Virus record (IMG/VR): IMGVR_UViG_3300037502_003155
Location: 1-64,000 of that record
DNA from: a virus
Reading direction: 5' to 3' (one strand)
Length of the DNA: 64,000 nt
Part shown: positions 12,438-31,341 of the stretch, in pieces
How the letters are laid out: each line of letters starts with the position of its first letter
Position numbering within the stretch: position 1 is the stretch's first letter
Position numbers and translations under genes: made by a program
The notes under the pieces: model-generated
The model's database searches: none
The model's input: only the letters and a program-made list of their open reading frames with translations
What the model was told of the DNA's origin: nothing

Positions 12438-12626
12438 ATGACCAACACAAACCTTGCATCCCGCATTGTCGCGGGAGTGCAATCTGCTAGCCCTGAACTG
12501 CTAGCGGATCTATCCCTATGCATCACCCTAGCCGCAGAGGCCCACCCTAGCGAGGCCGCTGCCTATTGGCTGTCCATCGCCGCTGAAATGCGCAGCACAT
12601 CCTACGAACGGAGGACGGGGGCATGA
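12438..12626 (+). CDS. hypothetical protein
   Basis: ATG at 12438 after a CA-rich leader; overlaps rusA start. Confidence 0.5.
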   Translation: MTNTNLASRIVAGVQSASPELLADLSLCITLAAEAHPSEAAAYWLSIAAEMRSTSYERRTGA

Positions 12627-13404: not shown

Positions 13405-13730
13405 CTCTGGCCTTCAGCTTTGGCCCGTGGGGTGGCTTCTACCTTCACACGGGTTACACCTTTCGTATTTGCCTAGGGTGGGTTGCCATCACCTTTTTGC
13501 CTGTTGATTTTGATTATTTACTGGAGATTTCCATGCTCGATCCCGCCATCATCACAGCCCTGTATAGGGTAGCCGACTGTGCCGCTGCCATTACCGAAAC
13601 GGCCTACCACGATGACACCGAAGACCCCACACGCCGCACCATTGGCGAGGCTGATTATGTGGCCCTGCACAATGCTCTGGCCGTGCTAGAGGCGCTAGAA
13701 GCGGCGGCTAAACAGGAGGTGCAGGAATAA
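13401..13730 (+). CDS. hypothetical protein
   Basis: ORF coupled to both neighbours. Confidence 0.5.
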   Translation: MTLAFSFGPWGGFYLHTGYTFRICLGWVAITFLPVDFDYLLEISMLDPAIITALYRVADCAAAITETAYHDDTEDPTRRTIGEADYVALHNALAVLEALEAAAKQEVQE

Positions 13731-14443
13731 TGTACACCAGCAATTGCGCGTATTGCGGCACTCAATTTACGTCTTTACGACCTAGAGAATGTTGCCAGCG
13801 GTCTTGCTCAGGCAAACTCAATCATCAACGACTAGGAACCGACTGGTCTCAAGATGCAGAGTTGTGGTTAGAACAAAAAGCAGGAACTATGCCTCTACCA
13901 AATTTAACCGCAGCCTACAACCGGTCGGCAGTTCAATATGGCTGGGCTAATAGAAGCTTAAATTCCATAAAGCTTAAGCTCAAGCGGCTAAATCTTAGCC
14001 GCAAGTGTACAGAGAACAACATCACTCGCTATGAGTTGGCCAGGGTGCTAGAGATTTCCCCTGACAAGGTACGTGTCTGGACAAAGAATGGATTGCCGTA
14101 TCGCAAAGTAGCCCGCAATCAAACCGCCATAAAAATCAGCGATGTTCGTGCGTTTTTGCTGAACAATCCTAGTCGGGCTTTTGGCGTATCTTTTGATGGG
14201 CTGTCGTGGCTGATTGGTGAAATTGATGCAACCGCTATTTGCGAAGCAGACCATTCTCGGAGAGGACATCGTCGCCCCGTTGTAAATCTGGATACGGGAA
14301 AGGTTTACCCCGGCGTTAAGGCAGCAGCCCGAGAAAACTATCTTACTCACAACTGTATTGCACAATCAATTCAGAGGGGAGGCCGGAGTGGCGGTTGCAG
14401 ATGGGCCTACATTGATCAAATGGAGGAACAACGTCATGCCTAA
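13730..14443 (+). CDS. Zn-finger/HTH/NUMOD1-like DNA-binding protein
   Basis: CAYC..CC..C; ELARVLEIS HTH; C-terminal VVNLDTGKVYP..RWAY; paralog of 13042. Confidence 0.7.
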   Translation: MYTSNCAYCGTQFTSLRPRECCQRSCSGKLNHQRLGTDWSQDAELWLEQKAGTMPLPNLTAAYNRSAVQYGWANRSLNSIKLKLKRLNLSRKCTENNITRYELARVLEISPDKVRVWTKNGLPYRKVARNQTAIKISDVRAFLLNNPSRAFGVSFDGLSWLIGEIDATAICEADHSRRGHRRPVVNLDTGKVYPGVKAAARENYLTHNCIAQSIQRGGRSGGCRWAYIDQMEEQRHA

Positions 14444-14714: not shown

Positions 14715-15096
14715 AGGCTTTGCACCACCTCGCCCATGGCAATGCCGGATCTACCAAGGTCAGCGCATCCACACCAGCCTGAAGATCGGCACGGTGGACG
14801 GCACCACCATCACCCGCAGCAATGCCCTGAAAACAGCCAAGATCGTCACAGCATTGTTGCAAGAGCCGACCAATACCGACTACCAATGTGGCCTAGCCCG
14901 ACAAAAAAGGATGAACGCCATCATACATCAAATTGCCTACGCTGCCCTTACCTTGGGGGTTGCCGTCGCCCTCGCTTTGCCCGTGGAAGCCACCACACGC
15001 CGAGGGTGTGATGACGTAACTGATCCCCTGTGCGTGCCCTTTGGGGCTACGGAGGGCGATGAACAGGGCAGTGCCCAGCGGGGTACTGGCCGCTAG
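14707..15096 (+). CDS. hypothetical protein with one hydrophobic helix
   Basis: GGAGG SD; IAYAALTLGVAVALAL. Confidence 0.5.
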   Translation: MTKGFAPPRPWQCRIYQGQRIHTSLKIGTVDGTTITRSNALKTAKIVTALLQEPTNTDYQCGLARQKRMNAIIHQIAYAALTLGVAVALALPVEATTRRGCDDVTDPLCVPFGATEGDEQGSAQRGTGR

Positions 15097-15163: not shown

Positions 15164-15415
15164 ATGACCACCGATGTTTTATCAGTCAGGACAATGGACA
15201 TTGATGTTAAAAGCCGATGGATTGCTGGAGGTGTTTTAGATGACGGGCAAACGATTGCCTACCCTGCGGTTTATAGCCGAGAAGAGGCTTGGGCCTTCGT
15301 CGCGGAACACTACCCAGGGCGTTGCCTAGTCCGCCATATTAGGGCCACCGTTGACAACATGCCAGCGCAAATGAGCGCTGGCGAAATACCACTGTTTTTT
15401 AGTTCACTGGATTAA
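15164..15415 (+). CDS. hypothetical protein (moron-like)
   Basis: ORF bracketed by a ~22-bp direct repeat. Confidence 0.5.
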   Translation: MTTDVLSVRTMDIDVKSRWIAGGVLDDGQTIAYPAVYSREEAWAFVAEHYPGRCLVRHIRATVDNMPAQMSAGEIPLFFSSLD

Positions 15416-15480
15416 CCGCCCGCCGCCAGCCCACAGCGTAGCGAGGGCATACCGATGAATAAACCAACAAGGACAAACGT

Positions 15481-16281
15481 ATGAGCGACGATATTGTTTT
15501 GCATGAAGGGGCCGGAGTATCCGGCGGGCTTCAGATCCGCACCATGGACGACCTTAGCCGAGTGGCCAAAATGTTGGCTATGTCCAAGTTTTTCAGCGAT
15601 GCCGCTGACGCTGCTCAGTGTGGCGTCAAGGTGCTGGCAGGTGCCGAGATGGGCTTTGGTGCCTTTGCCTCGATGACGGGCATCAACATCATCAAGGGGA
15701 AGCCCAGCATCGGGGCTAACCTGATGGCGGCGGCGGTGAAGCGCCACCCTAATTACAACTATCGGGTTTTGGAGCATACCCCCGAAGTGTGCCGCATTGC
15801 ATTCTATGAACGTTGGGACGGCAAGTTGGAGCAGGTAGGGGTAAGCGAATTTACCCTAGCTGACGCCAAAAAAGCAGGCACTCAAAATCTAGAAAAGTTT
15901 GCCCGCAACATGCTTTTTGCCCGCGCCATGAGCAACGGTGTGCGGTGGTATTGCCCCGATGTGTTTGACTCCCCCGTGTACACCCCTGAGGAGTTAGGGG
16001 CCAATGTAGACGGAGAGGGCAATTATGTAGATGTGCAGGTATTGGAACCGGAAACGGCCCCGACGCCCCTGCGAGTGGCAGAGAACCACCTCGAGGAGCA
16101 GGTGGCCGAAATCATCCGCTACGGCATGGAGAACGGGCTAGAGGTAGACCGAATCCGCGCACTATGCCGCAAGAGCAACCTGCCCGACACCAAAACGGGC
16201 TACACCAACTCCGCCCAGGTAACGACCCTGGCGCAACTGATTGAAGACGAAATTAACCTAGCCACCACGGAGGCCGCTTAA
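15481..16281 (+). CDS. RecT/Sak-like single-strand annealing recombinase
   Basis: G.E.G......I..I.GKP, RNMLFARA.S...R..CPD....YTPEEL; adjacent to ssb. Confidence 0.8.
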   Translation: MSDDIVLHEGAGVSGGLQIRTMDDLSRVAKMLAMSKFFSDAADAAQCGVKVLAGAEMGFGAFASMTGINIIKGKPSIGANLMAAAVKRHPNYNYRVLEHTPEVCRIAFYERWDGKLEQVGVSEFTLADAKKAGTQNLEKFARNMLFARAMSNGVRWYCPDVFDSPVYTPEELGANVDGEGNYVDVQVLEPETAPTPLRVAENHLEEQVAEIIRYGMENGLEVDRIRALCRKSNLPDTKTGYTNSAQVTTLAQLIEDEINLATTEAA

Positions 16282-16283
16282 CC

Positions 16284-16679
16284 ATGCCCGCAGAAGCTAC
16301 TAACTACAACAGTGTTCAATTGATCGGCAACCTGGGGGCAGACCCCGAGGTTAAATTCTTCGACTCTGGCTCCCGTGTTGCAGAATGCCGAATTGCCGTT
16401 TATGCGGGGAAAGACAAGTCTACGGGAGAGAATAAGCCCTCGATGTGGTTCACGGTCAAGGCTTGGAATGCCTGCGCCGATGACTTGATGGACTTACGCA
16501 AGGGGGATCGACTCCAAGTAGTTGAGGGGCAACTTTCCCAGGACGCTTGGCAAGATCGGGAAACCGGAGCCAAGCGTAGCAAGGACTATGTGTTGGCCTG
16601 GAAAGTAGCCAAGGTTGAACGGCAACCACGGGAAGCCCAACCCGCCGCCGCTACCAACTACGACGACATCCCTTTCTAA
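16284..16679 (+). CDS. ssb: single-stranded DNA-binding protein
   Basis: LIGNLGADPE, KGD..V.G.L, C-terminal DDIPF. Confidence 0.95.
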   Translation: MPAEATNYNSVQLIGNLGADPEVKFFDSGSRVAECRIAVYAGKDKSTGENKPSMWFTVKAWNACADDLMDLRKGDRLQVVEGQLSQDAWQDRETGAKRSKDYVLAWKVAKVERQPREAQPAAATNYDDIPF

Positions 16680-18938: not shown

Positions 18939-19091
18939 ATGAGAACCCGTAAGGAACGCGCCACTGATCTCGCCACCATGCAGCAGACGGTGGCAGAAGC
19001 CCAGGCCCAAGCCGATGCTATGCAGCGCAAGATGGAGCAGCAGCTACGAGAATTGGGGGACGCCAAGGCCATGATCGAGGAGTGCTGGTAG
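18939..19091 (+). CDS. small coiled-coil protein (50 aa)
   Basis: MRTRKERATDLATMQQTV...EECW*, GAGG SD, followed by a hairpin; below the ORF-track cutoff. Confidence 0.45.
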   Translation: MRTRKERATDLATMQQTVAEAQAQADAMQRKMEQQLRELGDAKAMIEECW

Positions 19092-19297
19092 CCTACGCAT
19101 AGCTCCAACAACAAAACCCCCGGCACCACACGGCACCGGGGGTTTGTGTTAGTCATCTTCCAGAGTCTCCCAAGACAGCTTCTCAGCGTAAGCTTTGACT
19201 TGGGCCACGATACGCTTTGGGACTCGCATCGTGGTGAGAAGTTCACCTGGGGGGTAGGGTGAGTGGCCTCGCCCACCCCGGCTGTAGTCGCGGCCCT

Positions 19298-19603
19298 TTA
19301 TGCGGGCACTTTTGGGATTTCTACCACAGTCCCCACGGGGGGGGCGGTGCGGCTGTGGCGGGAAGTGACGACAGCACCGCCTAGACGAGGGTCGAAGGTG
19401 CCGACCCATTGAGTGGTGTGGTAATGATGGGCAAGGGCGGCGTAGAGCCACACAGGCCCACGTCCAGAGATGACTACGCCTTTGGTGCCGTCCACGTCGG
19501 GCGGGTTGAGGGTAGCAAGGTCTGCGGGTTCGCAGACCCCGCCGGGGATCTCGAACTCAAGCAGGGTCGCCCCTGCGAAGGGAGTGGTAGTGAACTGAAT
19601 CAT
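19298..19603 (-). CDS. csx3: Csx3/Crn3 cyclic-oligoadenylate ring nuclease, phage-encoded
   Basis: GVVISGRGPVWLY..LAHHYH...W...FDPRLGGAVV..RHS signature; AAGGAGG SD before ATG 19603. Confidence 0.88.
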   Translation of the reverse strand: MIQFTTTPFAGATLLEFEIPGGVCEPADLATLNPPDVDGTKGVVISGRGPVWLYAALAHHYHTTQWVGTFDPRLGGAVVTSRHSRTAPPVGTVVEIPKVPA

Positions 19604-19665
19604 GCTGCCTCCTTGGGCTGGTTGGGTGTGCAGGGCTTTACCTGCGGGGCTTGAGAGCGGTGACA

Positions 19666-20133
19666 TTAACGACGCTTGACGGGCCGGGGCTTGCCACTGG
19701 GGAGCGACTTGAACTCAGCCCCGACCCATTGGCCGAGTTCGTCCAGCACCCACTGAGGGATCGGGATAGGTTCCCCTTTGTAGGCCGCTTTTGTGCGACC
19801 CAAGGCAGGGTTCCGGCGGCGGATAAATCCGCGCTCCAGAGTTTTTTGGGTTTTGTCCTCAATGACCGCGACCATTTTCGCGGGTACGCGAAAATCTTTG
19901 TAAACATTTTCGTCAATAGACCATCTTTTCATGTCAATAAACAACCCGTCTTTGATTACCCGGGTTTTTACTTGGTCTACTTCAACCAGATCGGTTTTTT
20001 TGCCGATCCGGATAAAAGTTTCCCAGTCCTCTCGACTAGGAACGACGGTGCCCTCAGCAAAGAACCATTCTGGGCCCCCATCCGAGGTTCCAGGCATAAA
20101 CCCCCGGTAATGTCTCAACGCATCAGTTGCCAT
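19666..20133 (-). CDS. hypothetical protein (candidate anti-defence)
   Basis: preceded by the repeated 58-bp leader; same operon as csx3. Confidence 0.65.
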   Translation of the reverse strand: MATDALRHYRGFMPGTSDGGPEWFFAEGTVVPSREDWETFIRIGKKTDLVEVDQVKTRVIKDGLFIDMKRWSIDENVYKDFRVPAKMVAVIEDKTQKTLERGFIRRRNPALGRTKAAYKGEPIPIPQWVLDELGQWVGAEFKSLPSGKPRPVKRR

Positions 20134-20150
20134 AGTCTTATCGCCGCCCC

Positions 20151-20779
20151 TCTTTTCGGCGCACCCTGCCCACCATGCAGGTTTCTTGGGGATAGTGTTG
20201 GTGGAATGCAGGGCTTTACCTGCTGAGCTTGAGATCGAGTGTGGCTATTCGTCCAAGGCGTCCAAGGCGTCCAAGACAATGTTAAACATTGCCTCAAACC
20301 GATACCACTCGGGCTCGGTCGTTGATTCGAAAGAAACGACATCTCCCGAATCGGAATCGACAAACCTCAGCAGCCAGTCCATCCACTCTGGGATAACCTG
20401 CCCGTAAGCAGGGTATCCGTGAATGGGAGCAACGGGGACGGAAACCCCGAAGACGGATTTGATGTAGCGGCGGTAGAAGTCTGGCCGCACATCGCAATGC
20501 GGGCCGTCTCCACCTCCGTAGCTGCGAGCTATGCCGAGAGCGGCATAGCCTACAATCACCTCCATCTCGTCGATGGAGTCACACCCTTCGTACTGAAGGA
20601 TGTGAACTTCCTCCCATTGGGAGGTGGAAGGGTCTTCCATGTAAGAGCGTTCGGTGCGCTCTTCAGAGACCACGCTGAAATACTGGTCTTGGCTCAAACG
20701 ACTGTTGTACGCAGGCATAATCTTTTCGGCGTACCCTGCCCACCATGCAGGTTTACTTGGGGATTTAGTTGGTGGAATG
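20151..20779. repeat. 58/59-bp direct repeat (20151-20208, 20721-20779) preceding consecutive genes
   Basis: TCTTTTCGGCGYACCCTGCCCACCATGCAGGTTT..TTGGGGAT..GTTGGTGGAATG in both copies. Confidence 0.9.
20245..20718 (-). CDS. acidic hypothetical protein (candidate anti-defence)
   Basis: D/E-rich 157-aa ORF, first gene after a strong promoter. Confidence 0.65.
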   Translation of the reverse strand: MPAYNSRLSQDQYFSVVSEERTERSYMEDPSTSQWEEVHILQYEGCDSIDEMEVIVGYAALGIARSYGGGDGPHCDVRPDFYRRYIKSVFGVSVPVAPIHGYPAYGQVIPEWMDWLLRFVDSDSGDVVSFESTTEPEWYRFEAMFNIVLDALDALDE

Positions 20780-20867
20780 GGGCACCGTGCAACTGCTGCA
20801 CTTTTGGCCGCTTGCTAGGGTTGTCGTGGCTGCTCCACCGTGCCCGGTTGCAGTAGCGCCCCTCTCG

Positions 20868-20954
20868 TGAACGCTAGCGGGACTCGAACCCACCATTTAA
20901 CTTGCCTAGGGCTGACATCCTGAGAACCCTGCCTTGCGGGCTGGTTCAGTGCCC
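20868..20954 (-). ncRNA. tRNA-like structured RNA (not a canonical tRNA)
   Basis: T-arm GTGGG-TTCGAGT-CCCGC, imperfect closing stem GGGCACTG/TAGCGTTC, GCAA-capped hairpin; begins just after a promoter. Confidence 0.4.
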
Positions 20955-20963
20955 ATGAACATA

Positions 20964-20992
20964 ACTGTATACGGTTTGTTTAATGTTGTCAA
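20964..20992 (-). promoter_or_regulatory. strong sigma70-type early promoter
   Basis: TTGACA-N17-TACAGT. Confidence 0.75.
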
Positions 20993-20999
20993 CGCCTTT

Positions 21000-22751
21000 T
21001 TATAAATCCAGTAGCAGGTGCCCCACATCATTTGGAATCTGGTATCGTGCTGGGCTACCCCCATCGCTCACCACAAAGCCGTCATCGGTGGCCATGCGGT
21101 CGAGGGTGAAGGCTACCTGGTCAGTGGTCAGTTTTTTGAGAGCTGTGGATTGTTGCCGGATCTCTGAGGCCAGCATGGGGGCGTTGGCCTTGTGCTCCAG
21201 GATGGCAAGAATGAGTTGCTTAACCTCGCTCATGGTTTCGGGGGTTACGGCCACCGCAACCTCAGGGAAAGTCCCCAATGTGTTGAGCGTGGGAATCTCA
21301 AGCTCTGGCGTTTGCCCCACGAACAACCGTGACGCATGAACGGCAAACGTGCGGTTCACTGCTGACTGACGACGTAGGGCAGTGTGATAGGTTTGAGCCG
21401 ATTCGCGCTCAGACTTTGCGCGGATCAGTGCATCGTCCGTGAGCACGTTGTCGATGGTTTTGGCGTTGCCCTCCATGGGCTTGCCTTCGTGGTCTTTGGT
21501 CGTTTTGCAGCCCAAAGCTAGGGTGCAAATGTTGTCGCGCAATCCGCTGGATAACGTGTTTTTGCCAGGGGAAAAGCTGATGTCTCCGAGCAAATGGCTT
21601 TGGTTTACCAAAATCATGTGCATATTTAGCTCACGGCCCGCCACGATAAGATCAAGAAAAACGGTGGTGATTAGCTTTTGCTCATCCTTCTCAAGCCAAG
21701 CCAGCTTGCCTTTGGCTAACATCCACTCATCGAAGACAAACCAGAGATGTTTTCCCACGGGTTGCCCTTGATTCAGCCGTCCTTTGCGCTTCGTTAGCTC
21801 AGTATTGATCTGGTTAAACAATTTCAGGTAATCGTTATCCGACTGCATAAACCGAGCGGCGGGCTTAAGGTTTGCCCAGTCAGATCCTTTAGGGTCAGCA
21901 ATGGTGATAAGGTGCCCCTGGTTGGCCAGATGGGTACAGAGATTCCGCAGCACCCAGGTTTTTCCGCTACCTGTAGTAGCAGCGATCAGAATGTGTATTT
22001 GGCTAGCCAGGTAGGGAACAAAGGCTTGTGGCAATTCGGCGGGTTGCCAGCCAGTAGATTCAGCTTCCATCGGGGGCGCTACAGCCTCTATGTGTTCCCA
22101 CGGCTCCGTCACCATGTCAGGGGTGCCCTGGGGGGCTTCTATGGGCTGGGTCGGCTGGTCAGTTCCTTCAACAGCCGAGGATGATTCTTGAGGCGAGGAT
22201 GATTCTTGAGGCTTCTGAAGCCATTGGAACGGGCCTAGTTCAGTCGGCACGCCCTTAGGCTCAATCCCCCAATCCTCTAGCAGTTGCTCTAGCCGTTGAA
22301 TGGGCAGCATGACGTTAGTGGGGTCGCTAGGGTCAATCCAGCAATAGACCTCTCCATATTTGGCCAAGGGGTGCTTGTCCTTGGGGCTAAACTCAATCCA
22401 GCCTGTATGGCCGAGCATCCCTTCAATGGCTCGGTTGATGGCGGCTACGTCGTAGCGTTTTTTAAGTTGTGCGCGAAGATCGTTGATGCTGGGATGCTTT
22501 GGGGTAGAGGCGCTCAAGATTTCCTGCAATTCATCCCCCTCTTCCTTAGGGCGAAACTTTTTGATTTCGTCCAAAAAATAAGCCCCCATACCAACAACCG
22601 CCGCAACACTGGCAATGGGCAGTGTTGCGGCGGTTGTATATAAAACAACGATACCCCCACCCACAACGATTGCCCTTTCTAGCAGCCCGCCGCTAGCTGG
22701 TTTAATGAGCGCGGGCTGTTTCTTTTTCGGGCTGATGGTGGTCAGGGTCAT
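21000..22751 (-). CDS. FtsK/TraB/VirD4-like membrane-anchored ATPase with C-terminal winged helix
   Basis: two N-terminal TM helices, Walker A AATTGSGKT, DPKG, Walker B FVFDE, GRELNMHMILVNQS, terminal wHTH-like segment. Confidence 0.8.
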   Translation of the reverse strand: MTLTTISPKKKQPALIKPASGGLLERAIVVGGGIVVLYTTAATLPIASVAAVVGMGAYFLDEIKKFRPKEEGDELQEILSASTPKHPSINDLRAQLKKRYDVAAINRAIEGMLGHTGWIEFSPKDKHPLAKYGEVYCWIDPSDPTNVMLPIQRLEQLLEDWGIEPKGVPTELGPFQWLQKPQESSSPQESSSAVEGTDQPTQPIEAPQGTPDMVTEPWEHIEAVAPPMEAESTGWQPAELPQAFVPYLASQIHILIAATTGSGKTWVLRNLCTHLANQGHLITIADPKGSDWANLKPAARFMQSDNDYLKLFNQINTELTKRKGRLNQGQPVGKHLWFVFDEWMLAKGKLAWLEKDEQKLITTVFLDLIVAGRELNMHMILVNQSHLLGDISFSPGKNTLSSGLRDNICTLALGCKTTKDHEGKPMEGNAKTIDNVLTDDALIRAKSERESAQTYHTALRRQSAVNRTFAVHASRLFVGQTPELEIPTLNTLGTFPEVAVAVTPETMSEVKQLILAILEHKANAPMLASEIRQQSTALKKLTTDQVAFTLDRMATDDGFVVSDGGSPARYQIPNDVGHLLLDL

Positions 22752-22757
22752 GGCTGA

Positions 22758-23414
22758 TTACTCTCCATACTTTCTCATGTTTGATTTTTTGCCCCCGCCG
22801 AACACCCCGGCAAAGGCGAAGGTGGCACCGATCAACGCATCGAGGGCGAGGCTATCAACCAAGGCCGCAGTCATTGAGGCTTCACCCCCACGGGCTACCC
22901 ACACGATCCAGGCTTCCACCACAAAGGCGGCAACAGAAAACAGAAGGATCGTCCGCAGTTGCTCGGCACTGAGTTTGTTGTGGCGGTCTACCAGGCGTTT
23001 AATTTCGCCGCTGTCGTTGGACTCAGCCGCCAACAGATTGCGGTTGCGTTGCTGCCCTCGCAGGTGGCTAATCATGCCCTCGATGACTCTGGGGTGAAAG
23101 TAGAGGCCAGTAGGGAGGGATTGCAGAATGGTGAGGACAATCAACACCACCACAGGGAGCAGTCCCACGAGGACGGACGCTGTTAGGTTGCAGAACCCCC
23201 GCAAGAATCCCCCTATCAATGGGGCGGCAACGAACTGGACGCATACCCCACTGATACGGCTTATCCCCCAGCTAGCAAAGGCCGCTTGGTATAAGCCCAG
23301 GGCACGGTAGAGAAGGAACGTCCCCACCATGCCAGAGGCAACGTAGACGGGCCATTTGACCCACGAAAGGCCCACTTGCTTGCGAGGTGCGGCACTCTTG
23401 AATTCTTGAGTCAT
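22758..23414 (-). CDS. multi-pass membrane protein
   Basis: 4-5 hydrophobic segments; ATG at 23414 likely. Confidence 0.7.
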   Translation of the reverse strand: MTQEFKSAAPRKQVGLSWVKWPVYVASGMVGTFLLYRALGLYQAAFASWGISRISGVCVQFVAAPLIGGFLRGFCNLTASVLVGLLPVVVLIVLTILQSLPTGLYFHPRVIEGMISHLRGQQRNRNLLAAESNDSGEIKRLVDRHNKLSAEQLRTILLFSVAAFVVEAWIVWVARGGEASMTAALVDSLALDALIGATFAFAGVFGGGKKSNMRKYGE

Positions 23415-23418
23415 GCCC

Positions 23419-23889
23419 TTACTGCTCCTGGCTGATTTGATAAACAATCTGGGCGCGTTGCTGCATCGCCTGGGCTTCCAGGGCAAAACCACCAGCCACT
23501 AGCGCCTCTCTGATTCGGGGGCTGGTGCCAATATGCTCAACGATCTGGCCAGACTCCACCCGGAATAAACTCCCGTCGCTGCTGCACACATAGCCTCCCT
23601 GGATAGGCGTGCCTTGGGGGTAGAGCGTCGTCACGCTCATAGGGTCGATGGGAACATCGCCAACAGCAAAGTTGGTCGTCTGGGTTTCACGATTGATCGC
23701 CTGAGCAATGCAGCTTTGCTCTACGAAAATGTTTTCAGCCCGTAGCTGGGCTTTGGCTCCGGCCTCATCAGACTGGCTTGCCTGAACCTGGGCACGGAAC
23801 CGCTCAGCCCCTCCTAGGTACAAGCTCCCGCCAATCACGCCAGCGCAGGCCAGCAAAATAAACGTCGTCTTGTGATCATCTAGCTCCAT
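23419..23889 (-). CDS. single-pass membrane/periplasmic protein
   Basis: ATG at 23889 with GGAGG SD; N-terminal TM FILLACAGVIGGSLYL. Confidence 0.7.
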   Translation of the reverse strand: MELDDHKTTFILLACAGVIGGSLYLGGAERFRAQVQASQSDEAGAKAQLRAENIFVEQSCIAQAINRETQTTNFAVGDVPIDPMSVTTLYPQGTPIQGGYVCSSDGSLFRVESGQIVEHIGTSPRIREALVAGGFALEAQAMQQRAQIVYQISQEQ

Positions 23890-23933
23890 ATCTGGCCTCC
23901 CTAAAATCGTCGCGAGAATCCTCGAAAGCATTG

Positions 23934-24043
23934 ATCTAAGGCCATCTAAGGGGTATCTGGTAGTATCTGGCAGAGCATCTAGCGAGGGCCGTTTTAGATA
24001 CCCCTTAGATGCCTCCGAGATGGCCCGCCAGATAGCCCTAGAT
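23934..24043. repeat. symmetric helically phased ATCT/AGAT array with a 16-bp inverted repeat
   Basis: ATCT at 23934, 23944, 23955, 23965, 23977; AGAT at 23996, 24007, 24018, 24030, 24040; CATCTAAGGGGTATCT / AGATACCCCTTAGATG. Confidence 0.85.
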
Positions 24044-24074
24044 GGGTGCGCGGCATCATCGCGCATGGCCAGAA

Positions 24075-24551
24075 TTAGCCGTGCGATGCGGTACTGCTGG
24101 CTCCGTCCGAACTTGTCAAGTAAGCCGACTGCGTCCCCTGTTGCAATGGCGCGAAGGACACTGGCTTCAAGCTCGGCGCGACGATGCCCGTCTTCGGCCC
24201 GGTCGGGTGAGCCGCTACTAGCTCCCCTACGTTCCGGGCAATTTGCCCGAAAAAAGAGCCACCTAGCAGAATGTCAGCAAGCATCACACTGCTGTCATTT
24301 ACCAATGGCTGTGCCGCCGCTTGGTATTCATTGCCAATCTTCTGAATAGCCTGAGCCTTGGCGGTTAGAGACTCTTGCACCTGAGTTCGGATCTGGGCAA
24401 GCTCAGCCGCCACCTGAGCCCGATATGCGGCATCTTCGCCGCCAAGAGGCGTCTTGGTGCTGCTAGCCTCCGAAGAAGTTTGCCCACTGGCTTGCGCTGT
24501 CTGGGGCTGGGCTTTGGGGTTGGCTTTGGGGTCGAATCCGTTGTTTGCCAT
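24075..24551 (-). CDS. coiled-coil protein
   Basis: AGGAG SD; Q/A-rich helical central region. Confidence 0.65.
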   Translation of the reverse strand: MANNGFDPKANPKAQPQTAQASGQTSSEASSTKTPLGGEDAAYRAQVAAELAQIRTQVQESLTAKAQAIQKIGNEYQAAAQPLVNDSSVMLADILLGGSFFGQIARNVGELVAAHPTGPKTGIVAPSLKPVSFAPLQQGTQSAYLTSSDGASSTASHG

Positions 24552-24804
24552 GATTGGGTTCTCCTAAAAACAATGAAATTTGGTCGTCGCTGTAGCCCTG
24601 GCGTTTCCACAAAGCCACCTGGGCTAATCGGTGGCATTGGCTTTCTGTTAACTCTCGGAGCCGTGACGGGATGCCTGCTAGATTGCACCATCGCCATAGG
24701 GTGGGTTCCGAGATTACCTGCCTACTTTCGGGGTATCGAATCCGCGAAAGCTCTTGCCGTGCGGTCAATCTGTCGAATGTGGCAGGCGCGTGAAAAGCTT
24801 TCAT
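24463..24804 (-). CDS. MerR/Xis-like HTH protein
   Basis: ISEPTLWRWC..AGI....LTE.Q...L; first gene of operon. Confidence 0.6.
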   Translation of the reverse strand: MKAFHAPATFDRLTARQELSRIRYPESRQVISEPTLWRWCNLAGIPSRLRELTESQCHRLAQVALWKRQGYSDDQISLFLGEPNHGKQRIRPQSQPQSPAPDSASQWANFFGG

Positions 24805-24840
24805 CAGCTTTCACCGTCCTTTCATCGGGCTTATAGAAAT

Positions 24841-24868
24841 AGCCTAGCGCTAAAATCTCCCCTGTCAA
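24841..24868 (-). promoter_or_regulatory. promoter of the ATPase operon
   Basis: TTGACA-N16-TAGGCT. Confidence 0.5.
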
Positions 24869-24939
24869 CCCCTAAGAAGGGAGGCTATAGGGGTAAAATA
24901 TGGCGAGTGCCAATGTGTCGTAATTTGGAGAGAACGATT

Positions 24940-25194
24940 ATGGAGAGTCCCATGGCCCCTCGAAGTGCCCAGCCAAACTTGCAGGAGATTAAGATCAACG
25001 TCCCGTCTGAGTTGCTAGCTGATGCGCTGGAAATGTTTGAGGCCATGGGACTGAAGCCAGGGGACGCCCACCGGGACGCATGGATCGAGGGCGTTCAGGC
25101 CATGGCGGAAAAGTACAACAAAGTTTTGGTTAACAAGCGCCTGCGGCGACGGCTGGCACAAGGGGATGTTTCTAATAGCCATGAGGAAAACTAA
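24940..25194 (+). CDS. RHH-like regulator divergent from the ATPase operon
   Basis: EIKINVPSELL..A.....A.G....D pattern. Confidence 0.6.
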   Translation: MESPMAPRSAQPNLQEIKINVPSELLADALEMFEAMGLKPGDAHRDAWIEGVQAMAEKYNKVLVNKRLRRRLAQGDVSNSHEEN

Positions 25195-25275
25195 CCATGC
25201 CCGACAAGAAACCCAAGCCCAAGACCTACACACCCGATTGGCATGTAGACACCAACCCACAGGAGAACACCGACT

Positions 25276-25593
25276 ATGGCAACCAGCACAGCCCTAAGTC
25301 CGACCCGCATGGTTGGGATGCCCCACCAGCTTGAGCTAGAACTCGTCACCATTGGCAGTCAGCCGACCGCACACAACACCCCTTGCGGTGTAGCCCTAGG
25401 CACCGCCACTCACCCCCGAACTATCCCAGGGCTAGACGCTGACCTATGCCGTTGCCCTGCCTGCACCGACCGAGCCGAGGGCGGTATCTGGTGGTTCAAT
25501 TCAGCCATGCGAGAGGCTGTACTGAAGCGACGTACAGCGTTTCGGTTTCGGCTAGATGGCGGCGACCTGGCACGGGATGAAGCTGCCGCCTAG
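25276..25593 (+). CDS. hypothetical protein
   Basis: AGGAG SD; followed by a terminator hairpin. Confidence 0.55.
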   Translation: MATSTALSPTRMVGMPHQLELELVTIGSQPTAHNTPCGVALGTATHPRTIPGLDADLCRCPACTDRAEGGIWWFNSAMREAVLKRRTAFRFRLDGGDLARDEAAA

Positions 25594-25667
25594 ACCATTT
25601 TCCCGACGCCAACAAAAAGCCCTGCTATCGGTGGATGGCAGGGCTTTTGTGTGGGGTTAGGGACAAC

Positions 25668-26582
25668 CTAGTGCCAACCCAGTGAATCCATAGCGTCATC
25701 ACTGATCGGTGTAAACAGCATTTTTTCATGCCCGTTGCTGTCTTGACCGCATTGAATAGCCAAAGGGAATGTTCCGAACTCAGCAAGACCTCTAGCTAAT
25801 TGCTGGTTTTGCTCTGTCAGATATTTTCTGCATGGATAAGCGGTAACAGACAGATGACATACCCCATTTTGCTTATCAGCGTGAATCAGGCTGACAACTG
25901 GAATCACTGGTTCGCTATTGTCAAACTTTGGGTCTTGAAGAATATCCAAGATGTCGTGTCGAATTTGAGGATAAACATCGGCAACAATCAATCCAACGGC
26001 TTCCTCCTGTTGCTCTCTTGGCATTGCCCAAAATTCTTCTGGTGATTCAATGATCTTTACCCACATTTGCACCCCGCTATAGTCTTGCTCTAAACCAACC
26101 GGGTCTTTGCACTGAATGACAATGCTCTGTAGCGGCGTATTGTTTTTGATGGCGTCTCGCAAAGCCAGGGTAGGAATCATCATGGTTCCGTCAGGCGTAT
26201 CAATGAAGCTGAGCAAAGACGGTTTGCTATTGAGGATTTTTCTCTGCTGCTTTTTTGTCAGCACCTTCTGTAAATCAACAGAAGCAAAGCCTTTAGGCTT
26301 CTTCCTGGATTTTTTGGTTTGCTTTATGTTGTGGTTCCCCACCAATAGGGCAACATGATCCAAGACAGGGCGGCACAATTCAAACCATTCCCCTTCTAAT
26401 CGATGATGTGCCAATTCAGAATGAATACGGCTTTCTACTTCAACCCCACCGGGGATAAAGCCTAAGAGCCTTAGTTTGCGAGGGTTAGCGGTTTGCAAAG
26501 CCCTCAGCCTTTTTTCTGGATTTTTATCTTTGGTGTAGCCAATCTTTACGGCATCGCCGTCTTCGATGAAATAGACCGTCAT
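25668..26582 (-). CDS. GIY-YIG-like (T5orf172/MUG113) domain protein
   Basis: VYFI....VKIGYT...KRL..LQTANP...E..IH......GEWF. Confidence 0.8.
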   Translation of the reverse strand: MTVYFIEDGDAVKIGYTKDKNPEKRLRALQTANPRKLRLLGFIPGGVEVESRIHSELAHHRLEGEWFELCRPVLDHVALLVGNHNIKQTKKSRKKPKGFASVDLQKVLTKKQQRKILNSKPSLLSFIDTPDGTMMIPTLALRDAIKNNTPLQSIVIQCKDPVGLEQDYSGVQMWVKIIESPEEFWAMPREQQEEAVGLIVADVYPQIRHDILDILQDPKFDNSEPVIPVVSLIHADKQNGVCHLSVTAYPCRKYLTEQNQQLARGLAEFGTFPLAIQCGQDSNGHEKMLFTPISDDAMDSLGWH

Positions 26583-26636
26583 TGATTCTCTCCAAACAAC
26601 GATGCCCCGGTCAATGCCGGGGCTATGTGGTCTCAC

Positions 26637-27206
26637 CTAGTCTTCTAGCACTCTCTTAACCTTGCGGGCTACGTCAGAGCAAATGCCCTCACACTGATCG
26701 GCCCCCCAAGCCTGGGTATCTTCAATCGTTCGGCCCGACTTAATCTCTGCCAACGTTAGGGCGGCTAACTCCAGTTCATCAAGGCCGTCCCTAGTTGACT
26801 TTACCTTGCGCGATGCCTGAAGCTGCTTGGCTGTCTGCCCAAATAGCCCCACGTTCACCGCATTGGTGCATCGGGCATATTCATGGGGGTAAGCAACGCC
26901 GTGATTCTTGAGCGTGTCAGTAAGCTGGTATCGCGCCACCTTGCCGTCAAGGCGTGCCTTAATCTGCTTGTCTGACCAACCTAAGCGACTGTATTTGCGA
27001 ACGGCATGGTCAAGTGCTTTATCTGGGTCGGCAATGATGCCAGCAGCCCACCGCCGAAACTCAGCCCCACGCTTACCAGGGCACAGCATGAGGATTTGGT
27101 ACATCCCCTCTTCATTGGTAACGGGGGTTTCCCGTTGCCCACGACCGGGGAATTTGAAGTCCGAACAAAAGTCGCTAACCTCAGGATTCTGCTTTTCAAG
27201 TCGCTG
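26637..27206 (-). pseudogene. N-terminally truncated Bro-N/antirepressor-like gene
   Basis: frame continues upstream of the listed ATG as QRLEKQNPEVSDFCSDFKFPGRGQRETPVT until a TAG inside int sequence; no native start. Confidence 0.7.
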
Positions 27207-28272
27207 CCGCTACATGAGGGATGCTAGCCCCCTGCTCCAGCAGGTGACTGCCTAGGCTATGCCGTGCGGAGTAGGGCACTCGGTCAACGCCCGCCGCTTT
27301 GCAGATCCGTTTCCATGTGCGTTGGGAAAAATCGCAATCATTGATCGGGTTGCCCCGTGGGGTTAAAAATATCAAGTCGTCCGGCTTAGCCCCGGCGGGC
27401 CTCCGGGCGTTCAGCATCGCCACCATGTCAGCGTGCAGTGTCAGTGTCCTCACCTTGTTGGTCTTGGTGCCCTTTCTTTGCCGTGCCCAGCCAGCCGCCT
27501 TGCCATCGGGGGCTCGGGCGAGGGCTTCAGCAATGGTTGCCACACCGCGCTCTAGGTCAATGTGTCGCCACCTCAAGCCCGCTGCCTCGCTAACTCGCAG
27601 CCCCAAGTAGAACAGGGTCATTACAAAATCATGGTAGGGCTCGGTGCAGGGATCAGCCTTGGTGGCATCCAAGAAAGCCCGGATCTGCCCAGCAGTTAGC
27701 GGTGCCCGTTTTGGGTTGGGTTGGCGGCTGGCTTTGATGCGTGGCACGTCTGTCCACGGGTTGGACTCTAAGTGCCCCCGCTGCATGGCCCATTGACCAA
27801 AACTTCGCAGCCTCGATAGATTCTGGTTCGCCACAATGCCCGACTGAGAGGCCCGTAGGCGTTCGAGAAAGGCCGCTGCCTCTTTGGTGGTCACAATGTC
27901 CTTTCCCCATCGCTGTAGATGCCCTAGCAGTGGCTTATAGCTAGCGGTAATGGTTTGGCCGCTGGTGCCGTCCTCCCTGCGATGCTCGATAAATTGCTCG
28001 AACAGATCGGCGGTGGTTAGCCGGGGTGGCTCTGGCTCCGGCTCTGGCTGGGGTTTGTATTTGGCTAGCGTTGGGTCAAACTGCTCACGGGCAATATCAG
28101 CCTGAATCTCGGTGGCTAGTATCTCGGCACGATGGCGGTTGAGGGGGCTATCGGGTAGGCCAATGGCAAGCTGATACGGTCGCCCCTGGTGTGTCCACCT
28201 CAGGCGTAGCATTTCATTTCGCGTTGACACTGACACTGCCCCCCGTTTGTTACGGCGGTTTTTCCTGGGCAT
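27196..28272 (-). pseudogene. int: tyrosine integrase, C-terminally truncated
   Basis: Arm-binding N-terminus, GLRVSE, K, YSARHS present; ends at VAAAT* without LGH or catalytic Tyr. Confidence 0.85.
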
Positions 28273-28320
28273 GGTGGTTCATCTGCGTTCCTTCTCTGGT
28301 GTTCAGATCCTACCAAGGCA

Positions 28321-28920
28321 CCAGTCAGTAATTTACTGACTAACTGACAAAAGCCCAAAACCATTGAAGCGCAAAGGGTTTGGAGTTCTGTCAGCAACCC
28401 CAGTCAGTGAACTGTCAGCACCAGTCAGTAGAGCACTGACCAATAGAAATCCTTACGCAGCAAGGCTTTGAGGGGGACGAGTCAGTAAGTCAGTGAAATC
28501 CTTATATAGATATTTAAAATATCCCCCCCTAAAAGATCCCAAAAACTCTAATAGTTTTTGGCTCAACATCTCAATTTTTACTGACTTGCTGACTGGGATA
28601 CCTCAAACCCTTATATATCAAGGGTTTGCATTAGTCAGTGGCCTACTGACTTGTACTGACTGGCCTGCTGACAAATCCCCATACAAAATCTAGAAAGCTA
28701 TATACATCAATACTTTTAAGGATTATTCTATTCACTGACACTTACTGACTGGTCTACTGACAAATCCCCCTTTACTTCTCATTCCCATCACCATCAATAA
28801 ATAAATGGTTATCAGATCTATATACCTATAGCTATAGAAGGGCGTTGTATACGGTACACAATAAGGATTGATAGTGATGCCTCTGGTCAATGAGTTGGAC
28901 AGGGATTCACTGACTGACTG
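28321..28920. repeat. ACTGAC/GTCAGT iteron module A (origin-like)
   Basis: many GTCAG/CTGAC copies, CCTT-N7-AAGG dyads, AT-rich core; 36 bp identical to module B. Confidence 0.8.
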
Positions 28921-28974
28921 CCACGGCCTAGCGGGGTAGGATAAAGAGGTTGTTTACCACCCCAACCCCAACCA

Positions 28975-31341
28975 ATGGTTGTGAGTCAACAAAGACAAAT
29001 TGACTTTCCCGCTAGCGCCCCCGTGGCGTATCCGCTGTTCTACCGCACCTATAGCCGCGTCACCGACGAGGGCCAACGCGAATCCTGGGAACAGGTCTGC
29101 CGCCGCACTGTGGCGGGACTCAAAGAACTGGGGGCGCTGAATGACGACGAAACCGCACTGCTGGCCCGGATGCAGCGCCAGGTTGTTGCCTTGCCCTCCG
29201 GTCGGTGGCTATGGGTCGGCGGAACTGACTGGAGCAAGAAACCTGAGAACTTTTCGGGTAGCTATAACTGCACAAGCACGAACGTACTAGACTGGCGTGC
29301 CTTTGGCTTGATGATGGATTTGGCCATGCAAGGCTGTGGCACCGGGGCCGTGCTTGAAGATCGGTATATCAGCCAGTTGCCCGTGATTCGCAATCGGCTG
29401 AACGTGGTGGTTGATGGGGAGATTGGTAGCGCCCGACCTGAGGAAAAGCACGATAGTACGGTATTGGCCATCAATGGCAATCGCGTCATCATCCAGGTGG
29501 GCGATAGTCGCCAAGGATGGGCAGAGTCTTATCAGAAGTTGCTAGAGCTATCCAGTGCAGGGCGCTTTGATGGCCCTGTTGATGTGGTTGTTGACCTGTC
29601 CTCTGTACGCCCTTCCGGGGCACGTCTGCGGGGCTTCGGGGGCATTGCTAATCCAGTTAAGCTGCCGGGGCTCTATGGCCGTTGTGCGGCGATTCTGAAT
29701 AAGGCCATTGGACGAAAACTCAATGCCGTAGAATGCTGCCTTCTGATTGATGAGGCGGCGTCAGTAGTGGTGGCGGGCAATGTCCGAAGATCAGCGGGGA
29801 TGCGTCAATTTGACAGCACCGACGCCCTTGCCGCCACCGCCAAAGACGACCTTTGGCAACAAGACGCCGAGGGCAACTGGCGGATCGACCCAGAACGCGA
29901 TGCCTTGCGGATGGCCAACCATACCCGTGTGTTCCACCAAAAGCCTAGCCTGGAGGACTGCACTGCCGCCGTGCAGAAGCAGTTTTACTCTGGCGAGGGT
30001 GCGATTCAATGGGCGGGTGAGGCCGTCGCCCGCTCCAATGCGGATCTGCTCAACACCCCTGAAAAGAAACGGGAATTTATTGCCCAGTATGTTGAGGGCA
30101 AGGGCGCGGAATATTTAGGGGCATTGATGGCCGATGGCCCTAGCTTTGAAAGTGAGTTACAACACCGATTGCAGCGCTATGCCCTGAATCCATGTGGTGA
30201 GATAATCTCCGCAGATTTCTTTTGTAACCTTTCTGAGGTGCATCTGAATCAACTCAATCCGCACGATTTCGAGGCTCAAAACGACGCCTTCACAGCAGCG
30301 GGGTTATCGGTGGCTGTGTTGTTAAACCACCAATTTGTTGAGCCACGTTATAAACAAGCCCGTGAATTTGACCCCATCGTAGGGGTATCCTTTACCGGGC
30401 TATTCGACTTCTTTGTGAATGCCTTTGGCGTAGACTGGCTGCGCTGGTGGGAGGCGGGACGGCCTAGCAACTGGAGCAGCTTGGGAGAGGATGCCGTATG
30501 GATTCCCCTTGGTGAAAAATTCAGCCAGGCCAACGCCGAATTTATGGCCCAAAGCGAATACTTCAGGTTGCGTGAACAGGAATACCTCACCCGCTGGGGC
30601 AACATCGCTCACCAAGCCGTGTGGGACTACTGCGACCGCCACGGCCTAAAGCGCCCCAACCGTTGCACCACCGTGCAGCCTGCGGGATCTAAGTCCCTGC
30701 TAACCGGGGCATCCCCAGGCTGGCATCCTCCCAAGGCACAGCGCTTTATCCGGCGCGTCACCTTCCGCAAGGGCGACCCCGTGGCCCTGGCCTGCATCGA
30801 CTATGGCTATACCGTGGTGCCCTCGCAGTCCGACAAAGACGATGACGGCAACCTACTCAACGATCCCTTCGACCCCCGTTGTACCGAGTGGCTGGTAGAG
30901 ATTCCGGTAGAGGTGCCCTGGGCTAACCTGCCGGGTGCCGATGCCATCCACATCGAGCGATTCAGTGTGGCGGCACAGTTTGATTTCTACATGCAGGTGC
31001 AGAAGCACTATGCGACCCATAACGTTTCTAGTACCTTGGAAATGCGCGAGGGCGAAATTGAGGAACTAGCTGAGCTAATCCACAACGCCATCGAAAACGA
31101 CGAGGGCTATATTTCAGCGGCCCTCCTAGCCCGCTTCGATGACCTCCAGACGTTTCCCCGATTGCCCTTTGAGCCCATCGACAAGGCCACCTATGATACG
31201 CTGTCAGCGGCGGTGCTAGAACGGCGGGCGACTGATGATTTCCACCAAGCTTTGGCCCGGTACGATGCCGGAGAATTAGTCGAGGCTGGCCCCGCTGGTT
31301 GCGACTCGGATAAGTGCATGATGCCGGAGAAAAAGCGCTAA
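28975..31341 (+). CDS. nrdJ: class II (adenosylcobalamin-dependent) ribonucleotide reductase
   Basis: YRTYSR, SGRWLW, YNC, NPCGEI, CNLSE, TVQPAG, C-terminal GCDSDKC; no intein. Confidence 0.95.
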   Translation: MVVSQQRQIDFPASAPVAYPLFYRTYSRVTDEGQRESWEQVCRRTVAGLKELGALNDDETALLARMQRQVVALPSGRWLWVGGTDWSKKPENFSGSYNCTSTNVLDWRAFGLMMDLAMQGCGTGAVLEDRYISQLPVIRNRLNVVVDGEIGSARPEEKHDSTVLAINGNRVIIQVGDSRQGWAESYQKLLELSSAGRFDGPVDVVVDLSSVRPSGARLRGFGGIANPVKLPGLYGRCAAILNKAIGRKLNAVECCLLIDEAASVVVAGNVRRSAGMRQFDSTDALAATAKDDLWQQDAEGNWRIDPERDALRMANHTRVFHQKPSLEDCTAAVQKQFYSGEGAIQWAGEAVARSNADLLNTPEKKREFIAQYVEGKGAEYLGALMADGPSFESELQHRLQRYALNPCGEIISADFFCNLSEVHLNQLNPHDFEAQNDAFTAAGLSVAVLLNHQFVEPRYKQAREFDPIVGVSFTGLFDFFVNAFGVDWLRWWEAGRPSNWSSLGEDAVWIPLGEKFSQANAEFMAQSEYFRLREQEYLTRWGNIAHQAVWDYCDRHGLKRPNRCTTVQPAGSKSLLTGASPGWHPPKAQRFIRRVTFRKGDPVALACIDYGYTVVPSQSDKDDDGNLLNDPFDPRCTEWLVEIPVEVPWANLPGADAIHIERFSVAAQFDFYMQVQKHYATHNVSSTLEMREGEIEELAELIHNAIENDEGYISAALLARFDDLQTFPRLPFEPIDKATYDTLSAAVLERRATDDFHQALARYDAGELVEAGPAGCDSDKCMMPEKKR

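Follow-up and report, generated by a model that had tools for sequence, protein, structure and literature searches.

A membrane-anchored FtsK/HerA-type ATPase operon in a cyanophage-like element, a candidate relaxase-free DNA-translocation cassette with links to plasmids of filamentous cyanobacteria

The stretch of DNA examined here, the window, comprises the first 64 kb (64,000 nt) of the IMG/VR virus record IMGVR_UViG_3300037502_003155, which is 76.9 kb long and rated 91% complete. It carries a cassette of five minus-strand genes (24804-21000), the last of which encodes a membrane-anchored ATPase. The explanation we favour, with a probability of about 0.35, is that this is an accessory, self-regulated membrane DNA-translocase cassette of a type common to temperate cyanophages and small plasmids of filamentous cyanobacteria. 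The ATPase, a protein of 583 amino acids (aa), would form a ring-shaped motor of the FtsK/coupling-protein type, anchored in the cytoplasmic membrane by its N-terminal helices, and its N-terminal part would dock on the two small membrane proteins encoded upstream to give an inner-membrane sub-complex. Following the logic of the Streptomyces TraB plus Spd system, the motor would need no relaxase, and would move double-stranded DNA of the element itself at the membrane or through it. A repeat array present in this lineage would be the protein-binding site of the system, either as the place where the terminal helical domains of the motor load or as an operator gating toxic membrane genes, and the leading purpose would be to bring phage DNA into neighbouring cells of a filament, or to clear it across the septum as this closes. 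The idea of a relaxase-free DNA translocase in the membrane draws on the nearest characterised relatives of the ATPase, the absence of VirB4 and relaxase genes, the small, fast-evolving membrane partners, and carriage by both phages and plasmids. The data establish the anatomy of the operon, its conservation, the fold neighbours of the ATPase, a block-wise swap in a sister locus and a link to plasmids; ring formation, DNA as the substrate, binding at the array, the direction of transport and its purpose are inferred.

An earlier note, made from the sequence of this stretch, had described five genes in a fixed order, a repeat array between the second and third genes, and no relaxase or type IV secretion genes. 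The gene order, membrane segments and ATPase motifs were borne out by the open reading frames (ORFs); the array was real and its pattern unique within the window; and searches of the entire 76.9-kb record for the VirB4, Relaxase (PF03432) and TrwC families gave no match. The single promoter that the note had placed in front of the operon is less certain: a consensus promoter scan found none upstream of 24804, and by eye we saw a TTGACA at 24868-24863 (minus strand) followed 16 nt downstream by a weak -10 element, TAGGCT. Its MerR-like, ribbon-helix-helix-like and winged-helix-like labels also lacked backing: gene 1, the divergent 84-aa gene and the C-terminal tail of the ATPase had no Pfam, NCBIfam or PDB sequence match, the 84-aa gene had no family match, and the tail was modelled as a helical segment, with a predicted local distance difference test score (pLDDT) of 55-71.

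The genes are tightly packed. The 3' end of gene 1 overlaps gene 2 by 89 nt, and genes 3, 4 and 5 are separated by just 4 and 6 nt. For gene 3 the most probable start is ATG 23889, 6 nt behind a GGAGG; homologues in other loci begin just before the transmembrane (TM) helix. For gene 4 it is ATG 23414. The two membrane proteins (genes 3 and 4) had no Pfam, NCBIfam, PHROG or PDB match, and a protein atlas gave no usable match for the 1-TM protein. A model of the homologue of this protein in a sister locus, L008, consisted of a TM helix, a 45-residue helix and a small beta domain (pLDDT 74); fold searches with this model, which might have revealed an NTF2-like periplasmic domain of the VirB8/TcpC type, gave no Foldseek match at E<0.09 and a VIA Z of at most 3.2, with the long helix dominating the search. 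Rfam had nothing in 19000-29000. Contigs from RNA libraries of one study cover parts of the module, and one of them (23920-24060) spans the array, as read-through would; DNA carry-over could produce the same contigs, and they are therefore no proof of transcription.

Table 1. Coordinates of the cassette and of features around it in the window.
Feature	Position	Strand	Description
Gene 1	24463-24804	-	ORF; 113-aa putative DNA-binding regulator with 'EPTLWRWCNLAGI' helix-turn-helix-like motif
Gene 2	24075-24551	-	ORF; 158-aa Ala/Gln-rich helical ('coiled-coil') protein
Array	23934-24043		between genes 2 and 3; mirror-symmetric, 5 ATCT + 5 AGAT, 10-12-bp spacing
Gene 3	23419-23889	-	156 aa; 1 TM (residues 10-28), long helix, small Cys-containing domain
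Gene 4	22758-23414	-	218 aa; about 4 TM helices, invariant LTILQSLPT..FHP motif
Gene 5	21000-22751	-	583-aa ATPase
Divergent intergenic region	24805-24939		
Divergent gene	24940-25194	+	84 aa, start ATG 24940; possible ribbon-helix-helix regulator
155-aa gene	19666-20133		between ATPase and csx3
csx3	19298-19666	-	stand-alone Csx3 ring nuclease (PF09620, E 1e-26); two genes downstream of ATPase
Integrase	27196-28272		tyrosine integrase

In the ATPase, TM segments (residues 19-60) are followed by a small domain of alpha/beta type (about 74-160) and, after a disordered linker, by an FtsK/HerA-type core (235-498) that AlphaFold2 modelled with a pLDDT of about 90, and then by the helical tail (504-557). 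Walker A (ATTGSGKT) and Walker B (VFDEW) are both invariant in its family. Pfam, NCBIfam, PHROGs and PADLOC returned only short P-loop matches (TrwB_AAD_bind, DUF87, FtsK, SXT_TraD, mad8). Among the 20 family members tested, TrwB_AAD_bind and DUF87 were matched by all 20, and the FtsK/SpoIIIE family PF01580 by only 7 (E<=0.01); the window's protein scored 14.4 bits to PF01580 over profile positions 40-64 only, against a cut-off of 24 (14.9 in a six-frame search). When 1.84 billion representative sequences were searched with phmmer, 74 proteins were found at E<=0.001 and 13 at E<=1e-30, and a word-indexed search gave 71 ATPase clusters with no informative name (one member is labelled EcfA2). 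All members of the core family came from metagenome sources. These searches suggest a rare, unnamed branch of the FtsK/HerA superfamily.

Comparison of folds placed the core more closely. Foldseek ranked TcpA, the coupling protein of pCW3, first (E 8e-8), followed by EccC and FtsK. With VIA-align, Z was 15.1 for TcpA, 13.7 for both FtsK and EccC, 13.2 for EssC, 12.5 for SIR2-HerA, and 12.2 for both VirB4 and the STIV B204 packaging ATPase, and the top 30 structural matches, at Z 11-15, were to TcpA, FtsK, EccC/EssC, HerA, VirB4 and STIV B204. The family profile run against PDB sequences gave TcpA at 3e-4, TrwB at 6.5e-4 and YukB at 5e-3. The ATPase groups, then, with TcpA, FtsK and EccC and not with packaging or defence ATPases. 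Sequence and model together point to a divergent member of the FtsK clade in the FtsK/HerA superfamily, nearest to conjugative DNA motors and distinct from canonical FtsK/SpoIIIE. It falls outside the type IV coupling proteins (TrwB/VirD4; PF10412, PF02534), as its match to PF10412 is partial (21.1 bits, cut-off 20.5, covering just profile positions 13-54 of 387) and the record gave no VirB4, Relaxase or TrwC match. It also falls outside the defence ATPases of PADLOC, where the best match was mad8 (29 bits, residues 252-324 only), HerA (13 bits) and PtuA were found at E>0.009, and the four other genes had no match. A packaging ATPase of the PRD1-type membrane viruses was ruled out by the portal, HK97-type capsid and protease genes of the element, and B204 ranks below the FtsK clade.

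The same fold comparison raises the possibility that the operon serves type VII-like export of the small helical protein or of other phage proteins. EccC and EssC lie within 2 Z units of the best fold match, the family profile reaches YukB at the value given above, and a small helical protein is encoded upstream. Set against this, the ATPase has one ATPase domain (235-498) where EccC and EssC have three, with NCBIfam EssC/EccCb matches (E 0.009-0.08) far below the cut-offs; the helical proteins have no WXG motif; and no relatives of EssA, EssB or EsaA were found in Pfam or NCBIfam searches. We consider protein export highly improbable.

Relatives of the cassette are encoded on 4 viral contigs (40-78 kb) and 13 metagenome contigs. 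An integrase is present on three of the four viral contigs and the same capsid family on one, and none has a portal like that of the window, which indicates that the cassette travels between phage backbones. The order of regulator, helical protein, membrane proteins and TM-anchored ATPase was kept in at least nine other viral or metagenomic loci. In the loci that we term type I (L003, L004, L006, L009, L010, L012, L014, L015 and L016), the ATPases are 38-60% identical to that of the window and about 410-455 aa long where complete. Their gene order, read wherever enough upstream sequence was present, begins with an 81-92-aa putative regulator and a 134-152-aa helical protein, to which some loci add a TM protein of 80 aa. 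Next come a tail-anchored protein (about 130-160 aa), a two-cysteine protein (about 160 aa; N-terminal TM helix, both cysteines invariant) and a multi-TM protein (about 165-175 aa), after which the ATPase follows. The window has no gene for the tail-anchored protein, and the array occupies that position.

Outside the ATPase, likeness between the loci was faint. With BLAST and tblastn the accessory proteins of the window showed no similarity to the other loci, the ATPase alone being similar by tblastn, and profile comparisons of the accessory proteins were weak (E 0.0023 to 0.61). Weak matches in collinear position linked gene 1 with the opening gene of the L015 module (BLASTP E 0.01) and gene 2 with its type-I counterparts in second place (BLASTP E 0.05, hhalign E 0.03). 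Gene 3 shares architecture and position with the type-I two-cysteine family, with a motif-level hhalign match (E 0.0023). Gene 4 belongs to a family of 8 clusters only, and its homology to the type-I multi-TM protein was not detectable by profile comparison. Scans of viral contigs with single sequences (ATPase, P0054) and with the multi-TM alignment gave no matches, and a pattern-reliant scan of genome contigs gave only a spurious P-loop match in an archaeon, which is no evidence of absence.

In type-I modules strong palindromes, likely operators, stand directly ahead of the first gene, and hairpins come after the helical-protein gene; from the latter, a control element between gene 2 and the membrane genes seems general. 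The palindromes at L004 7120-7172 and L006 7173-7308 have perfect 16-17-nt arms built of repeated TCGAAC or GTGAAC units. Two of these loci hold other features. In L004 (IMGVR_UViG_3300042470_001171) a Cas7-type gene (Cas_CT1975, E 1e-67; 15384-16637, plus strand) lies about 4.5 kb downstream of the ATPase; it may belong to a CRISPR-Cas system carried by the phage, or the contig may include host DNA. L009 opens with an ORF (1-600, plus strand, open-ended) in which helicase C-terminal-like sequence is in frame with the tail-anchored module protein, and this may reflect a chimeric contig or a fusion.

The sister locus L008 gave the clearest view of how the cassette is assembled. Its ATPase is 88% identical to that of the window over residues 202-446 and its helical protein 94% identical, and the sequences are unrelated from the start codon after the array onwards. 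The first 200 residues of the L008 ATPase differ from the window's, and hhalign assigns both L008 membrane proteins, 1-TM (E 5.5e-12) and multi-TM (E 1e-6), to the families of the type-I modules. These differences indicate that about 1.75 kb, comprising both membrane genes and the membrane-anchoring N-terminus of the ATPase, was swapped as one unit, and suggest that the motor N-terminus may dock on the two membrane proteins. The longest contig encoding one window-type multi-TM member (8169 nt) has the same length as that of ATPase P0062, which carries a window-type N-terminal domain on a different ATPase core. Domain shuffling was also seen in the near relatives P0004, P0094 and P0054-P0069, where the N-terminal 165 residues of the window's ATPase (45-64% identical), its C-terminal 80 (about 60-90%), or both flank at least two other unrelated-looking P-loop cores.

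The array lies in a 185-bp non-coding gap (23890-24074). On the operon strand the ATCT cores start at 24043, 24033, 24021, 24010 and 23999 and the AGAT cores at 23980, 23968, 23958, 23947 and 23937, and the array contains a perfect 16-bp inverted repeat (23943-23958 / 23996-24011). The phased ATCT pattern had 6 matches in the 64-kb window, all at the array, where 0.04 were expected. In L008 the array is about 98% identical up to the ribosome-binding site, and likeness ends at the next start codon, so that the array coincides with the recombination boundary between the two loci. No type-I locus has it. Only in the lineage of the window and L008 is the array found together with the C-terminal tail of the ATPase, which is one evolutionary event and hence no correlation. 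Its role may be that of a loading site for the terminal domains of the motor, of a centromere-like site, or of an operator or roadblock for the three toxic membrane genes.

The link to plasmids came from the family profile and from the terminal domains. The profile matched CrV-01T gp053 (1e-9), a 588-aa ORF of pCC7120epsilon (4.7e-4) and a 486-aa ORF of PaV-LD (0.004), and nothing on pCC7120 alpha, beta, gamma or delta. The pCC7120epsilon ORF is the last in an operon divergent from ParG, which runs from a ParM-like gene through small ORFs and the genes for a coiled-coil protein (238 aa) and a multi-TM protein (179 aa) to that of the ATPase, a protein with one N-terminal TM helix. The core of this plasmid ATPase is homologous to P0094 and P0004 (BLASTP 1e-10 and 3e-10); P0004 has the N- and C-terminal domains of the window's ATPase around a different core, and P0094 likewise has its C-terminal domain. 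Shared terminal domains with different cores indicate that two motor cores are interchangeable within one scaffold. In a tblastn search of 72,556 plasmids the plasmid ATPase was found in 47 records, 47 of 47 from filamentous genera (Nostoc 29, Tolypothrix 9, Microchaete 4, Aulosira 2, Oscillatoria 2, Calothrix 1). Matches to it in PLSDB are also seen split into separate N- and C-terminal halves.

The plasmid context brings in another possibility, that the cassette is a segregation device in which an FtsK/SpoIIIE-like septal motor clears the element's DNA from the closing septum, the array serving like a centromere or to orient the DNA, with either the small divergent regulator or the terminal domains of the motor bound to it. 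The R1 parC centromere consists of two sets of five 11-bp repeats bound by a ribbon-helix-helix protein, and the phased 5+5 array resembles it. FtsK is among the top fold matches, the module of pCC7120epsilon has a ParM-like gene ahead of it and ParG in divergent orientation, and the plasmid family is confined to filamentous genera. The phage, on the other hand, has an integrase and a module without ParA or ParM, most family members lack the array, and the accessory periplasm-facing two-cysteine protein has no obvious role in segregation. We regard this explanation as distinctly unlikely.

Both flanks of the cassette carry genes of defence or counter-defence type. Between the integrase and the cassette (25668-27104, minus strand) lie a T5orf172/MUG113 GIY-YIG-like gene and a DinD/DdrC-like gene (PADLOC PDC-S13, E 1e-18), a pair that looks like a small defence-type island. 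On the other side, homologues of the 155-aa gene and csx3 directly follow the ATPase in L011 and L016 too, which makes the link of the cassette to csx3, a candidate anti-type-III-CRISPR gene, an old one.

This neighbourhood is the basis of the main rival to a DNA translocase, prophage superinfection exclusion or defence, in which a membrane motor complex, produced in lysogens or at an early stage of infection, would block, expel or trap incoming foreign DNA and the array and regulators would only control the expression of toxic membrane genes. Besides the position in an accessory island, with the integrase, PDC-S13/DinD-like and T5orf172 genes on one side and csx3 on the other, and the linkage of ATPase, 155-aa gene and csx3 kept in L011 and L016, it would account for membrane partners that turn over fast by non-homologous replacement, as in an arms race, for a cassette that behaves as accessory cargo on phage backbones without a matching portal, and for the strong palindromic operators upstream of type-I modules. 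Its weak points are that we know of no exclusion or defence system with a membrane-anchored FtsK-like motor, that the PADLOC matches to mad8 and HerA do not go beyond weak P-loop similarity, and that the linked plasmid module adjoins ParG and a ParM-like partition gene and not defence genes. We judge exclusion or defence unlikely.

A genome-entry motor was also weighed, an early membrane translocase that would pull in the rest of an infecting genome with the repeats as its loading site, likened to the second-step transfer proteins of T5 and to phi29 p17. The cassette is contiguous with an early-type anti-defence island, its fold is that of a DNA translocase, and the two halves of the array are oppositely oriented; but a related form of the cassette is found on plasmids, it behaves as accessory cargo across unrelated phage backbones, and the genome termini are not placed, the record being linear without end repeats. 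We think this very improbable.

The carrier appears to be a widespread temperate-type, cyanophage-like freshwater phage. PHROG matches in the window include a portal, a head-maturation protease and an HK97-type major head protein, and a Prim-Pol/DUF3987 primase-helicase and a C5 methylase are also encoded. The closest matches of the capsid protein among 50,697 phage records were Planktothrix phage PaV-LD (37%), Aphanizomenon phage CL131 and Synechococcus phage S-CBS4. Lake and freshwater metagenomes from at least 12 studies contain the 4-kb region of the cassette, with 67-77% of its sampled words present. An 80-aa Cro/XRE-like gene (11688-11930, plus strand) is the first gene of a plus-strand early operon, divergent from 11086-11625, and is probably the phage's main lysis-lysogeny switch, distinct from the cassette regulators. 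A lambda cI-rexAB-like arrangement of the cassette is less likely, since the Cro-like gene heading the early operon is there. As to the host, the sole named relative of an accessory protein was in a metagenome-assembled genome (MAG) of Rhizonema (Nostocales). A 61-aa ORF (14911-15096, plus strand) with a hydrophobic N-terminus ends in QRGTGR, the motif by which filamentous cyanobacteria's HetR inhibitors of the PatS/PatX type are marked, and is a possible host clue. The plasmid link, the Rhizonema match and this ORF favour, indirectly, a filamentous cyanobacterial host.

If the cassette is a DNA translocase, it might pass the phage genome from cell to cell, so that neighbours are infected without lysis. 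For such virion-independent spread the motor would load at the ATCT/AGAT array and pump the double-stranded genome out of a cell, infected or lysogenic, either to the periplasm that the cells of a cyanobacterial filament share or across the septum. The downstream anti-defence genes (Csx3 and others) would be a 'leading region' expressed on arrival, and small plasmids of filamentous cyanobacteria would use this machine too, its motor cores and membrane adaptors being exchangeable. Spread of this kind is, in our estimate, unlikely, and that it represents a TraB/Spd-like system for double-stranded DNA transfer outside Actinobacteria we hold equally doubtful; that the cassette works like TraB and Spd is plausible. 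The fold placement and conserved gene order on which the earlier note's version of this idea depended were both found. Its likeness to TraB, Spd and Kor stood as far as fold neighbours, layout and the missing relaxase go, and no homology was found. Its expectation that the module would occur in filamentous hosts only found agreement in the plasmid-type ATPase, through a link that is indirect and confounded by phylogeny.

Several observations weigh against DNA transport along a filament as the role of the cassette. No homology to TraB, Spd or Kor was found; tblastn with the ATPase matched two ORFs on Streptomyces plasmids (E 4e-4 to 5e-4; residues 236-385 of the ATPase), of which the 735-aa ORF is unannotated and has no PF01580 match. 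The PF01580 score of the window's own ATPase is below the cut-off, and where the FtsK-like protein of phage CrV-01T has QRP, a conserved signature of FtsK, the ATPase family has QSH. EccC and EssC, which are protein exporters, come close to TcpA in Z, and DNA is only a presumed substrate of the motor. Most family members have neither the C-terminal tail nor the array, so that a clt-like site is not a feature of the family, and the array could equally be read as an operator. The operon contains no wall hydrolase or outer-envelope component, and the neighbouring PDC-S13-like, T5orf172 and Csx3 genes fit exclusion or defence equally well. The filament-only distribution belongs to the linked plasmid family, most of whose plasmids come from a single order; phylogeny confounds it, and the link from plasmid to window is indirect. 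The only host leads for the window's own family are the Rhizonema MAG match and the cyanophage-like capsid, and the G+C content of the window (54%) is far above the roughly 40% of Nostocales and Planktothrix genomes. FtsK-like genes also occur in 290 phage records, mostly from phages of Bacillus, Mycobacterium and Listeria, which are unicellular hosts, and an FtsK-like gene in a phage is thus by itself no sign of spread along a filament.

To our knowledge, relaxase-free transfer of double-stranded DNA by an FtsK-like motor with small membrane proteins is established only for mycelial Actinobacteria, with TdtA of Thermus as a distant analogue. If a structurally related cassette shared by phages and plasmids does the same in filamentous cyanobacteria, this would suggest that multicellular bacteria have repeatedly evolved machines that move the DNA of mobile elements between sister cells, cyanophages would have a non-lytic route of spread, and a common, unstudied gene set of Nostoc plasmids would gain its first candidate role, one testable in tractable strains. 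Even if the role is exclusion or segregation, the block-wise swap of motor cores and membrane adaptors is a clear case of modular evolution of a membrane machine. The interpretation offered in the earlier note is partly supported: the cassette falls among relaxase-free FtsK-like modules and into a broader, unstudied class, with transfer or translocation as its candidate function.

Among known systems, the nearest motor is TcpA of Clostridium perfringens pCW3 (PDB 6o1w-6o1z). The two proteins superpose with a root-mean-square deviation of 3.4 over 213 residues and both have an N-terminal membrane anchor; they share 15-19% identity, and the Tcp type IV system includes a VirB4-like ATPase and a relaxase-type protein, whereas the record gave no match to these. 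The module of pCC7120epsilon (10824-13876) has the same layout of coiled-coil protein, multi-TM protein and membrane ATPase with a divergent ribbon-helix-helix gene, but the direct match of its core is weak (profile 4.7e-4, BLASTP 2e-4 over Walker A) and it follows a ParM-like gene. Like the window, the Cylindrospermopsis phages CrV-01T and Cr-LKS4 and the Planktothrix phage PaV-LD, which infect filamentous cyanobacteria, carry FtsK-like genes. In CrV-01T (L020 1242-6134) gp046-gp053 encode a Cro-like protein, a 125-aa protein, a 216-aa coiled-coil protein, three small TM proteins, a second coiled-coil protein and a 672-aa FtsK-like protein, and the module is 96% conserved in Cr-LKS4. The 672-aa protein is a canonical FtsK/SpoIIIE (PF01580, 87 bits) without N-terminal TM segments, and the accessory genes have sequences unrelated to the window's; the module is analogous, not homologous, to the cassette. 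In a diderm, TdtA of the integrated element ICETh1 of Thermus thermophilus is a hexameric membrane-associated FtsK/HerA-type ATPase, and this single ATPase pushes DNA from the donor without a type IV system (PMC5365140). We liken TdtA to the cassette by description; it differs in being HerA-like, in its NurA-like nuclease and restriction enzyme, and in having no small membrane partners.

The closest parallel in logic remains the TraB/clt/Spd/KorA system by which Streptomyces plasmids (TraR; pSVH1, pIJ101) are transferred and spread within the mycelium. The Streptomyces motor genes precede those of the membrane proteins, while in the cassette the membrane genes lie upstream of the motor. The clt sites are direct 8-bp repeats bound by the C-terminal winged helix of TraB, whereas the array has 4-bp cores in mirror-symmetric 5+5 order, and it is found, with the tail, in one sublineage only. 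The carrier here is a tailed phage and its likely host a diderm cyanobacterium. The two systems have in common a single membrane-associated FtsK-like motor without relaxase or VirB4, an operon of small, fast-diverging, translationally coupled membrane proteins with a small regulator and short repeats, and probably a multicellular host. In Streptomyces the Spd genes are likewise small, diverse and translationally coupled, their membrane products interact with TraB and are too diverse to be defined by sequence, and SpdB2-like genes carried by actinophages have been suggested to spread phage DNA (PMC4447253).

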